From a virus (Duplodnaviria; Heunggongvirae; Uroviricota; Caudoviricetes): a stretch of DNA of 13,563 bases. A program made the position numbers. The stretch lies in the IMG/VR virus record IMGVR_UViG_2778261358_000001; one strand, given 5' to 3'. This document shows, one piece after another, positions 9,001 to 13,563 of this stretch; within the stretch, counting starts at the first letter, position 1, and every line of letters begins with the position of its first letter.

Positions 9001-12000
9001 CGGCGGCCACCGGGGATTTTTTCTTTGTGATTTCATCAAGCGCATACTTAAAAGCCCTGCTAATCGGACTGATGTCTGATGCCATTCCGAAAGCACACAA
9101 GACCGAAGCAATAAATCTCCAGTCCGTTCTGCTTATCTTCGATTCATGACAGCCAATCATCTTTGCCAGACCGCGCTGGGTAAGCGTTGACAGGTTGATG
9201 AGTAAATCAGTTTCAGCGCGATCAATTTCTCGCTGTGATAGTTTGCTGTAACTTGTTTGTTCCATTTCTTAAGATTTCCAATAGTGAATAGCTAGTTGAA
9301 AGGTATGCGTGGAAACGCATATGGCCTTAGTTGGTCAGATATATTGGGACTCGCTTTGTCAGCGACGTAGGACGAATGTCCATTGTGAAAATAGCGGTGT
9401 TACTTATGCAGCCAGAAGGTTCTTTTTGCTTATTTCAAGCATTTCGCTTGCTTGATATTTGCCACCAGAAATCTCTTCGATTTTTGATGCGTATTTAGTT
9501 TTCCCAAAAAACTCAGTCTTAGGGAGGAAGCCGTTTTTGAGCCACTTATAGACAGCCCTTTCGCTAACTCCACAAGCCTTCGCAACTTCAGGGATGCCGA
9601 CACCTTTAATCGGCTCATCAAGATTTTGCATAGGAATATCCTTTTTCGTACTTTCAGTACGTATTATGGTTGAACTGAAAGTTTTTGCAAGTGCTTTAGT
9701 ATCGTACTCATGGTTCAGAATGAAAAAGTGCGCAAAGAATTCGCCCAGCGGCTAGCGCAAGCCTGTAAAGAAGCTGGTCTTGATGAACATGGTAGGGGAA
9801 TGGCTATAGCCCGTGCCCTTTCTCTTTCGTCCAAAGGCGTTAGCAAATGGTTTAATGCTGAGTCTTTACCGCGTCAGGAAAAAATGAATGCGCTTGCGAA
9901 ATTTCTAAACGTTGATGTTGTTTGGCTTCAGCACGGCACTTCGTTAAATGGAGCGAATGATGAAGATACTCTTTCATTTGTTGGCAAATTAAAAAAAGGG
10001 TTAGTGCGCGTGGTTGGTGAGGCAATTCTTGGTGTTGATGGTGCCATCGAGATGACCGAAGAGCGCGATGGGTGGCTCAAAATTTATAGCGATGATCCAG
10101 ATGCCTTTGGTCTTCGTGTGAAAGGAGACAGCATGTGGCCCAGAATAAAATCAGGAGAATATGTACTCATTGAGCCTAACACCAAAGTATTCCCGGGTGA
10201 TGAGGTGTTTGTCAGAACCGTTGAAGGACACAACATGATTAAGGTTCTTGGCTATGACAGAGATGGAGAATACCAATTTACAAGCATTAACCAGGATCAC
10301 AGGCCTATAACGTTGCCTTATCATCAAGTAGCAAAGGTGGAGTATGTAGCTGGTATTCTGAAGCAATCTCGCCATCTGGATGACATCGAGGCAAGGGAGT
10401 GGCTGAAAAGTTCGTGACTTCATCGTCACATAGCTGGTAACCAGTGGCCTGAAGAGACGTTTGGGTAAGGAGGATAGATGGCGTTCAATGACCTTGAATA
10501 TCAAGCAGTAAAAAAAGAAGTTCACCAATTCATTGAAAGCATAAGGCCGCCTGAACATATCCGCAATGAACTGGATATTGTTTATAGCATCAATGACCAA
10601 ACGATAGATATCGGCGAACAGCGCCCCGTGTGGCAGGGCAATCCAGGTGAAACAAACATCCTGCCATCAGCAAGAATCAAGTACATACGTTCTCTGGATA
10701 GATGGAAAATCTATTGGATGCGGAAGGATATGAAATGGCATCAGTACAGTACTGAACTTTCGCTGACTGATGCGCTTGAGCTTGTGCGTGCTGACCCGGA
10801 TTGCTGCTTCTTCGGATGAGTGAAGAGACGTTTGGATGATGGATGGTCGCAGAGATGCGGCCTGATTCTAAAATAGGATATAAAAAATGAGAATACTAGG
10901 TGTTAGAGCGGCGCCCAAAGTTACATCTTTTGTTGTATATTGCACTAATGAGTCTGCACTCAAATGTGTTGATGTTATTAAAATACCTTCGACCTTAGAC
11001 ACACCAGAAAAATTAAAGTATGTGAGAAATAACATCCTCGACATTCTTAATTTATATAATGTTGAATTAGCTGCCATACGCGTTACTGAATCAAACTCTG
11101 ATAATCTTAGCATTGACCGCCTTTATATAGAAGCTGTTATTCAAGAAGCATTTTCAAGCAGTGATGTAAGAAAATATTACACTATTAGAAAATCTGGCAT
11201 GAAATCATCATTGAACCTAACAGAGATCGAGTATAAAGAAATATTGAAGTCACACCGCAATATAAATGGAATCGATAATTCTGGTTTTACAGCTGAAACA
11301 AATGAAGCTGTTTTGGCTGCACTATCTGCGGAGGTAAGGGGATGCTAACTCCATACAAAAGAGCTGATGTAGAATTCGAATGGATTAGTGATCTAGAAGA
11401 ACAGGGTTGTTTTTCAAAAGTATATCTGGCTCATGACAGACACCTAGCTCATGACTTGGTGATTAAAGAAATAGAAAAAAAAGAAAACACTAACCACGAC
11501 GACTACTTTAATGAAGCAAGGCTTCTCTATAAACATGCACATCCAAATATTGTGCAAGTTCAGTATGCTGCTCAATGTGAGAGCAATATCTATATAGCCA
11601 TGCCATTTTATCATAATGGTTCGCTAAACCAATTAATGAAAAAAAATAATCTTACAAGCAGGGAGATAATACGGTATTCCATTCAATTTTTAAGTGGACT
11701 TTATCATATACACTCAAAAGGTCTTATGCATTTTGATATAAAACCTAATAACATTATGATATCAAACAGAAATGAGGCCATGCTATCTGACTTTGGATTA
11801 TCTCAGTTAGTCAATGAGGAATCGAGAGCTGCGCCTGAGTTTGGATATCATTTTCATGTGCCACCGGAATATTTTTCTTTATCAACAAATGATTATAATT
11901 TCACATATGACATATATCAGGCAGGATTAACCATATATAGAATGTGTGTTGGACATGATAATTTTGAAAGAGAAAGATCTGCATTTAGCACGATTGAACA

Positions 12001-13563
12001 ACTCAGAGAGTCGATAATTAATGGCTGCTATCCATTAAAAGAGTATCCTCCCCATATACATAAAAAATTAATAACAATAGTGAACAAATGCATTCATGTA
12101 GATCCAAATGAAAGATATCAATCCGTACTAGATGTACTAAACGATCTCTCAGCTATAAGTGATGGCGTTCTTGACTGGCGTCTACAGATGACGAAACCAA
12201 CTAACGGCACATGCGAATGGCAAAAAAAGTCTGGGGACGCTATACTGTCTATAGTTTTTGACGCAGAAAATTCGTCTACTACTGGTTTTCGTTTATACGA
12301 TGATGGGCGGAAAAGGCGTGCTACGAACTTAACAATATCCTCAGGATGTACCCCTACAAAACTGTATAGGTTATTAAAGGATAACTGATCATGAAAAAGC
12401 GCGAGGAAGTAAGCAAGCTGCCTCGCAGACGTGATGCAGCATTAGCGGTTCCCTACAAAAAAGATGAGTTCATAAGCCCTTCTGATGACAAAAAATTTTC
12501 AAAGGCGAAAAGTTTTACATCTACATCTCTAAAAGATAAATACTTTAAAATCTAGCCCGGCCTCAGCGCCGGGTTTTCTTTGCCTCACGTTCGCCCACCT
12601 AAAAAACATAACCAATTGTATTTATTGATGTAACTCGCTAAACCATGCAGTTATGATCCCTGCCGCATAACCTTCATCAGCCACATTTTCAAAAATAAAT
12701 TTCCTTATATATCAGAATCATACTTCGTAGAGTTAATAAATCACCAAAATTCGTACCAATAGTTCTTGATAATGTCGAACTACTGGTTCATTATTATCAT
12801 CGTCAGCAGGACGCATTACTCACCAGGTCGGTGAATATACAACGATTCGAATATGAATCTACGGCGCTGACAAAGCGCAATAACCAAAGTGAACTTTGGG
12901 GTGTGGTGAAGGGTTCATGGACGGGAATATGTCGCACGTAAAGCGGCGAGGCCTGCGGGACTATTGCCGAATTGAAGTAGGCCGAAACAGGTCGAAATGG
13001 GTCTCCCACCTACCACACCACCAAAGTTCATCAGGAGGTCTATATGACACGCAGAACTCAGTTCAAAGGCAATTCACGTTCTCGTCGTCGTGAGCGTTTA
13101 AAGGCAAAGGCATTAGCTAACGGCGTACTGGCCCGCGAAGAAGCAATAAGTTCAGAAGTATTACACCGCCCTACTCTAAGCAGAGCGCAGATTCAGGCTA
13201 AAGGTACTCACGAAACGCCTGAGCGCATAGAAGACGCTAAGCCAATTAAGTTCATGGCACAGGACGTGATCTGGCAACAGAAAGAATACAGACGCAATCT
13301 GGAGCGAGCGGCCATTGTGTACGCGAATGAGTTTGGACATAAGCAACCAGAAACTGGTGTATGTCTTCCAAACGTAGCCATTTACGCGGCAGGCTACCGG
13401 AAATCAAAACAACTGACGGCGAGGTGACTTGTGTTGGTCGCCAGAAAATGAAATTAGGCAGCAAACCACTTATTTGAGGTGAGATATGAACCGCCCCGGG
13501 AATCCTGGAGACTAAACTTCCTGAGAAAGAGGTAAACAGGATGACTAAAAATACTCGTTTTTC

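Follow-up and report, generated by a model that had tools for sequence, protein, structure and literature searches.

The 13,563-nucleotide (nt) stretch of viral DNA analyzed here (IMG/VR record IMGVR_UViG_2778261358_000001, Caudoviricetes; the window in what follows) encodes Stk, the protein kinase of Shiga-toxin (Stx) phage 933W. The kinase is already known; the apparent novelty is that this supposed "single-gene" system comprises three genes in one cassette, headed by a RuvC pseudo-nuclease (L0083) and completed, behind the kinase, by a small basic protein (L0081). Few prophage abortive-infection kinases have a reported trigger, and Stk of 933W is one of them; how the kinase is held off and switched on is the question that we address. 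The genes of the predicted cassette, and the ribosome-binding site at their first junction, are arranged as follows:

10887..11348, + strand: L0083 ("res" in phage phi24B), component A, 153 amino acids (aa), ATG start; predicted RuvC-fold pseudonuclease
11330..11334, + strand: Shine-Dalgarno sequence for stk, GGAGG (consensus), 7 nt before the stk ATG and within the L0083 coding sequence
11342..12388, + strand: stk, component B, 348 aa, ATG start; Hanks-type protein kinase
12391..12555, + strand: L0081, component C, 54 aa; small and strongly basic (isoelectric point, pI, about 10), starting 2 nt past the stk stop

Judging from its sequence, the window is the immunity region of 933W: bases 9700-13450 match the 933W record (AF125520) with 99.9% identity over 3751 nt and identical gene order, and the same 99.9% identity is shared with dozens of Stx-converting phages. 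The 153-aa open reading frame (ORF) and the kinase ORF that overlaps it correspond in this record to L0083 and stk, so that the window kinase is the same gene, in the same cI-to-tM operon, as that of the 933W Stk abortive-infection system of Friedman et al. (2011; PMID 21985444). In the searchable literature this system is treated as a single gene, and neither the upstream RuvC-fold gene nor the small downstream gene is mentioned as a part of it; no description of a role for L0083 or of a three-gene Stk cassette was found in the literature searched (subscription papers lay outside the search).

The strict linkage of L0083 and stk is the first line of evidence for the cassette. When GTDB representative genomes, one for each species, were scanned with the L0083 family, 39 loci came up, in Gamma-, Beta- and Alphaproteobacteria, Bacteroidota, Firmicutes (Clostridium, Lachnoclostridium) and Acidobacteriota, and a Stk homolog lies directly downstream in every one of them (E-values of 1e-62 to 1e-133 for intact copies, with three split or truncated). 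The reciprocal scan, which started from seven Stk-family kinases (from Pseudomonas, Elizabethkingia, Vibrio, Acinetobacter, Klebsiella, Proteus and a metagenome), yielded 13 loci, all 13 with a gene of 145-155 aa and no Pfam hit directly upstream of the kinase. The species concerned belong to five phyla. The two proteins also diverge together: pairwise identities of L0083 and Stk proteins correlate with r = 0.92 (36 pairs), and their mean identities are 0.44 and 0.45, respectively. The initial annotation of this region, which had proposed that the 153-aa ORF and the kinase are translationally coupled partners, had named absence of the ORF from homologous cassettes as the observation that would speak against its proposal; the 39 partner-side and 13 kinase-side loci clearly show the opposite.

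The same annotation had described a 7-nt overlap between the stop of the 153-aa ORF and the kinase ATG, and both the ORF list and the sequence bear this out. At the junction (GGAGGTAAGGGGATGCTAAC) the stk ATG occupies 11342-11344 and the L0083 TAA 11346-11348, and the junction read (GGAGGTAAGGGGATGCTAA) gives the overlap ATGCTAA at 11342..11348 (+). Across all 52 related loci (39 partner-side and 13 kinase-side) the kinase start lies between -8 and +10 nt from the partner stop, with offsets of -8, -7, -4, -1, or +1 to +10 nt in the partner-side set, so that the close stop/start spacing expected of a translationally coupled pair is found in the window and in all relatives. The junction takes the form ATGnnTAA, ATGA, TAATG, or a 1-10-nt gap with its own Shine-Dalgarno sequence. 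The fold of the junction RNA is not significant (z = -0.78) and gives no sign of a structure that would hide the stk start, and the kinase gene has a strong Shine-Dalgarno sequence of its own. Short gene overlaps are ordinary in bacterial operons, and it is the conservation of the overlap, not the overlap alone, that exceeds chance.

Clustering of the flanking ORFs pointed to a third gene, a small + strand ORF directly behind the kinase. A direct search of 40 loci gave 38 with an ORF of 50-71 aa whose start lies between -29 and +20 nt relative to the kinase stop, L0081 of the window being among these ORFs; in one of the two exceptions the contig ends there, and in the other (L030) no third ORF was found at a threshold of 35 aa. 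Each of the L0081-like ORFs encodes a basic product, with a net charge of +3 to +12 and a median pI of about 10 across the set. They have in common an MKK-type start at the N-terminus and two motifs, [LYF]x[ST/R]R and, C-terminally, [YF][ILFV], and several assemblies annotate them as genes. L0081 is probably the third component of the Stk system, and L0083, stk and L0081 together look like a conserved and widely distributed three-gene cassette.

L0083 itself carries a fold that sequence comparison barely detects. The initial annotation had seen in its N-terminus a faint resemblance to an RNase H-like (RuvC/YqgF) start; in an AlphaFold2 model built with 32 homologs (mean predicted local distance difference test score, pLDDT, 91.6) the resemblance extends to the whole protein, with secondary-structure elements in the order beta-beta-beta-alpha-beta-alpha-beta-alpha and a predicted RNase H-like fold of RuvC topology over its full length. 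Matches in a fold comparison of this model include phage bIL67 RuvC, chloroplast MOC1 and a poxvirus resolvase; the non-catalytic relatives TEFM, Tex and Spt6 are also matched, at lower rank, and a Foldseek search against viral models returns phage RuvC proteins. By sequence, the Pfam RuvC family (PF02075) scores 14.2 bits, below the cut-off of 22.2 (E = 0.042), the L0083 family profile has no meaningful match and no RuvC entry among its PDB hits, and PADLOC and NCBIfam scans found no model for either L0083 or L0081. Kinship with RuvC is therefore revealed by fold comparison only, since sequence methods give almost nothing. L0083 is nonetheless a real gene, because it is conserved to about 26% identity, is modeled with high confidence and, as "res" of phi24B, has a reported lysogen-linked expression. 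An 81-aa antisense ORF overlaps it (window 10868-11113, - strand) and similar antisense ORFs occur in 23 related loci; these are shadows of the conserved coding frame, not genes.

Two of the carboxylates that RuvC uses to bind metal have been replaced. An exhaustive search defined the L0083 family as 442 clusters at 50% identity, and 123 representatives, pairwise at most 50% identical, were aligned. A profile alignment with E. coli RuvC sets ILGVR7 of L0083 opposite ILGID7, and AAIR65 opposite FAIE66. The site of the catalytic Asp7 is held by Arg7 in 122 of the 123 relatives, in agreement with the earlier remark that the 153-aa protein lacks the first catalytic Asp, and position 65, the RuvC Glu66 site, is Arg or Lys in all 123. 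Among the positions equivalent to the four carboxylates of E. coli RuvC (D7, E66, D138 and D141), the last alone is acidic in L0083, namely E140, which we infer to correspond to D141 from its place in the C-terminal helix; this position is Glu or Asp in all 123 relatives. G5, R47, R78, E82 and E87 are invariant, and E68 is present in 121 of the 123. RuvC mutants at D7 and E66 keep junction binding and lose cutting. Because arginines replace two metal-binding carboxylates, L0083 is predicted to be unable to cut DNA by the RuvC mechanism, and the most fitting name for it is pseudo-resolvase, with a putative pocket that is conserved, remodeled and charged. The suggestion that the 153-aa protein may be a non-catalytic partner gains support from these substitutions together with the strict kinase linkage. 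Public records carry a different label: the phi24B ortholog is annotated as "res, putative Holliday junction resolvase", and RefSeq and PHROG give "RuvC-like Holliday junction resolvase". Since both metal-binding carboxylates are replaced by cationic side chains family-wide, this label is functionally doubtful and a probable mis-annotation that has spread through the records of Stx phages.

The kinase, by comparison with known families, retains the features expected of an active enzyme. Stk scores 158.8 bits against the protein kinase family PF00069 (cut-off 31.7), as a Hanks-type kinase should, with the kinase domain at residues about 21-260, and in 35 homologs K42, E58, H130-F-D132-x-K134-P-x-N137, D150-F-G and P175-E176 are invariant. 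It is thus an active-looking non-RD kinase, with HFD in place of HRD. Eukaryotic non-RD kinases are often linked to innate-immune receptors and are not regulated via activation-loop phosphorylation; the HFD non-RD motif (stk residues 130-134, window 11726-11740) is common to Stk relatives. Behind the kinase domain lies a C-terminal domain of ~75 aa, a beta-sheet plus helix (residues 273-348, nt 12158-12385). Published work describes Stk as a eukaryote-like tyrosine kinase that is activated by HK97 infection and excludes HK97 (PMC3681748; PMC6356687), with little or no activity in uninfected lysogens (PMC3681748). Membership of Stk in the MAD6, PknB or PglW families was considered and rejected, as scores fall far under the NCBIfam cut-offs (for MAD6, NF047741, 122 bits against an equivalog cut-off of 460). 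PADLOC profiles for PD-T4-6 match the Stk kinase domain only (E = 1e-37), and identity with that system is unlikely, its type protein (RRM76169.1) being a different, longer kinase of 436 aa that was cloned alone.

Around the cassette, the 933W record gives the + strand order pM, cI, L0084, L0083, stk, L0081, terminator tM, nutL and N, of which the following elements delimit the operon in the window:

9675..9702, + strand: maintenance promoter pM/pRM, from the AF125520 annotation, mapped from locus coordinates
9710..10417, + strand: cI repressor, first gene of the operon; context, outside the cassette
10478..10819, + strand: L0084, DUF3024 protein, PADLOC candidate PDC-S43; neighbor, outside the core cassette
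12554..12575, + strand: intrinsic terminator tM of the pM/pRM transcript, directly after L0081; operon end

pM/pRM is the presumed source of a cI-L0084-L0083-stk-L0081 transcript in lysogens. The sole intrinsic terminator between cI and N is that at 12554-12575, right behind L0081, and a consensus scan of the window found no promoter-like site ahead of L0083, in agreement with the annotated pM-to-tM transcript. For phi24B, earlier work, as cited in PMC4651098, ties the expression of "res" and of the DUF3024 gene to the lysogenic state, and the RNA-Seq data of PMC4651098 show cI, stk, res and the DUF3024 gene unchanged upon induction. Within L0083 (window ~11133-11213), record AP004402 (Stx2 phage I) lists three sites as "putative operators" along with another "maintenance promoter"; these are probably an annotation artefact, because the promoter scan gives no support to them. 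The rest of the window, at 7998-8936 (-) and upstream, holds the early-right genes of 933W on the minus strand (cro, cII, O with the ori iterons, and P, with nin-region ORFs downstream), which show nothing unusual.

The three genes differ in base composition from the operon that carries them. GC content is 35.1% in L0083, 35.4% in stk and 37.6% in L0081, versus 45.2% in cI, 44.7% in L0084 and 49.2% in N, with sharp steps at window ~10820 and ~12560, and these steps indicate a horizontal insertion of the three-gene cassette into the immunity operon. L0084 was considered as a cassette member and rejected: among related loci only Proteus prophages carry it, and its GC content resembles that of cI. 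Its match to the PADLOC phage-defence candidate PDC-S43 (E = 5e-42) suggests that it may be a separate defence gene.

Elsewhere, the trio is found in a variety of mobile and defence settings: beside Abi_2 and RT+PRTase genes, LlaJI restriction-modification genes plus ArdA, or type I restriction-modification genes; next to integrases or serine recombinases; just behind unrelated prophage CI repressors; and among prophage tail genes. Such settings amount to the behavior of a mobile defence cassette, and the same cassette serves as a moron at different prophage sites. One Acinetobacter baumannii example (L049/L050, 6540-8059) lies between the tail-tube and tape-measure genes and not in an immunity region.

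The fold of L0083, the loss of its catalytic residues, the three-gene linkage and the mobile, defence-associated context are established directly by these analyses, and expression in lysogens and the abortion of HK97 infection are taken from the literature. On this basis we hold, with moderate confidence, that the trio is a mobile anti-phage cassette in which Stk is the effector, L0083 an obligate regulatory or sensing partner and L0081 a small basic modulator or substrate. In a lysogen the cassette would be transcribed from pRM to tM, downstream of cI, and Stk would act as the kinase that aborts infection. L0083 would keep Stk off in the uninfected cell, and an infection cue recognized through its remodeled RuvC cleft would then activate the kinase, perhaps because dimerization of L0083 pairs two Stk molecules, by analogy with the eukaryotic kinase PKR. 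Among conceivable cues, the most attractive would be an intermediate of recombination or of branched DNA, or else the single-strand-annealing recombinase of the phage, which produces it, and L0081 may modulate the response or be phosphorylated in its course as a substrate. What we infer in this proposal is that L0083 and Stk interact physically, in which direction the regulation runs and what kind of cue is sensed.

Several considerations weigh against it. Kinship of L0083 with RuvC is absent at the sequence level, where Pfam stays below its cut-off and the PDB search yields no match. The L0083 family is near neutral (median pI 6.4 vs 9.6 for E. coli RuvC), which weakens the idea of a DNA sensor. 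The gene order, in which a small gene precedes and overlaps that of a toxic effector, would suit an antitoxin-like inhibitor just as well, and the four invariant glutamates may be compatible with a non-canonical catalytic site. Finally, if the exclusion of HK97 by Friedman et al. was obtained with a stk-only clone, L0083 would be dispensable, at least on over-expression.

Foremost among the alternatives, possible although in our view doubtful, L0083 is an antitoxin-like inhibitor that silences Stk until a phage product displaces or destroys it; in this reading DNA structure is not sensed, and the RuvC fold serves as a scaffold only. Such a role would suit the lost catalytic residues, the non-basic character of the family and the low activity of Stk reported for uninfected lysogens (PMC3681748), and a small upstream gene that overlaps its effector is reminiscent of type II toxin-antitoxin operons, with which the gene order alone is compatible. 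Antitoxins usually evolve faster, however, and L0083 is as conserved as the kinase; moreover, eight of its charged residues, the former active site included, are (nearly) invariant across phyla, a pattern more suggestive of a conserved site for a ligand than of a simple cap. The inhibitor reading overlaps with the sensing partner that we favor, because a sensor can also be an inhibitor.

A more specific version of the sensing-partner proposal, which we put forward tentatively and consider unlikely, is that the L0083 pseudo-resolvase dimerizes on branched DNA or on an annealing recombinase (e.g., HK97 Erf/gp41) and activates Stk in a PKR-like manner, with L0081 as a third regulatory part. The gp41 protein of HK97 is reportedly needed to activate Stk. 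In the HK97 genome (NC_002167), an Erf-like single-strand-annealing protein is encoded at 3176-3781, flanked by Gp40 and Gp42/Gp43; by the numbering of the genes, this is gene 41.

It is improbable, if conceivable, that L0083 is mainly a substrate or an adaptor that presents targets to Stk, and that L0081 is the true regulator, pseudosubstrate or inhibitor peptide. L0081-like ORFs are conserved in position, basic, and equipped with a [ST]R motif and a C-terminal Tyr/Phe, and the extra C-terminal domain of Stk could accommodate such an arrangement; however, the [ST] position is Arg in L0081 of 933W, so phosphorylation there is not universal, locus L030 lacks the third ORF at the threshold used, and the present data do not tell an adaptor from a sensor.

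We regard it as very improbable that L0083 acts as a nuclease effector through a non-canonical active site (E68/E82/E87/E140), is regulated by Stk phosphorylation, and kills the infected cell by cleaving DNA. The complete RuvC fold, the (near) invariance of the four acidic residues, the public resolvase annotation and the presence of conserved Ser91/Ser92 and Tyr97 as possible phospho-sites are all consistent with such an activity. The beta-1 Asp is held to be required across RNase H-like nucleases, however, and this site is Arg in all but one relative and the Glu66 site Arg or Lys in all, two cationic side chains that would fill the metal sites; in addition, published work credits exclusion to stk and tyrosine phosphorylation (PMC3681748).

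Incidental operon packing, with L0083 an unrelated decayed phage resolvase gene beside stk, could appeal to the frequency of short overlaps in operons, the Shine-Dalgarno sequence of stk's own and the non-significant junction fold, but it is effectively refuted by the conservation data: the pair co-occurs in 52 of 52 loci from Proteobacteria, Bacteroidota, Firmicutes and Acidobacteriota in unrelated neighborhoods, the two genes co-diverge, and L0083, with its 442 clusters and invariant residues, is under strong selection.

Comparison with known systems places the cassette among several partial relatives. Compared with the RuvC resolvases of bacteria and of phage bIL67, L0083 has the invariant Arg7 and Arg/Lys65 in place of the catalytic Asp7 and Glu66; it is near neutral instead of basic, and its genomic link is to a kinase and not to ruvAB or a recombination module. 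Other RuvC-fold pseudonucleases, such as mitochondrial TEFM and the YqgF-like domains of Tex and Spt6, serve a different biology (transcription elongation) and have no sequence relationship to L0083, which resembles genuine RuvC more closely than it does these proteins. On the kinase side, the single-gene defences PD-T4-6 (Vassallo 2022) and staphylococcal Stk2 (Depardieu 2016) likewise use a Hanks-type kinase as the abortive-infection effector. According to the supplement of PMC9519451, the PD-T4-6 type protein was cloned with 179 nt of upstream sequence; neither a RuvC-like partner nor a small gene downstream accompanies it, in contrast to Stk, which at 348 aa is accompanied by two conserved partner genes. 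MAD6 of the MADS system is the best PADLOC and NCBIfam kinase-domain match to Stk, but it has about 612-659 residues and belongs to a multi-gene system, associated with methylation, that the window lacks. In genomic position, the cassette occupies the place that rexAB holds in lambda: RexAB and other morons cotranscribed with cI follow the same logic (downstream of cI, expressed from pRM in the lysogen, with a terminator before pL/N), although the proteins are unrelated. The likeness to PKR would be a functional analogy only, running from nucleic-acid sensing through kinase dimerization and activation to an infected cell that is shut down; PKR combines its sensor, which binds double-stranded RNA, with the kinase in one fused protein, whereas the putative sensor of Stk is a separate RuvC-fold protein.

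These observations change the choice of construct for work on Stk, since in the loci examined the kinase is always accompanied by a RuvC-fold protein that is predicted to be nuclease-dead and almost always by a small basic protein. The cassette is widespread, as the number of partner clusters indicates, and its partner genes have no model in PADLOC v2. If gene 41 is the trigger of Stk, the cassette would link a phage recombinase trigger to a resolvase-fold partner, a connection that is testable. If the PKR-like reading is true, L0083 and Stk would represent a bacterial nucleic-acid-structure sensor that activates a kinase to abort infection, and one that has spread across at least five phyla.

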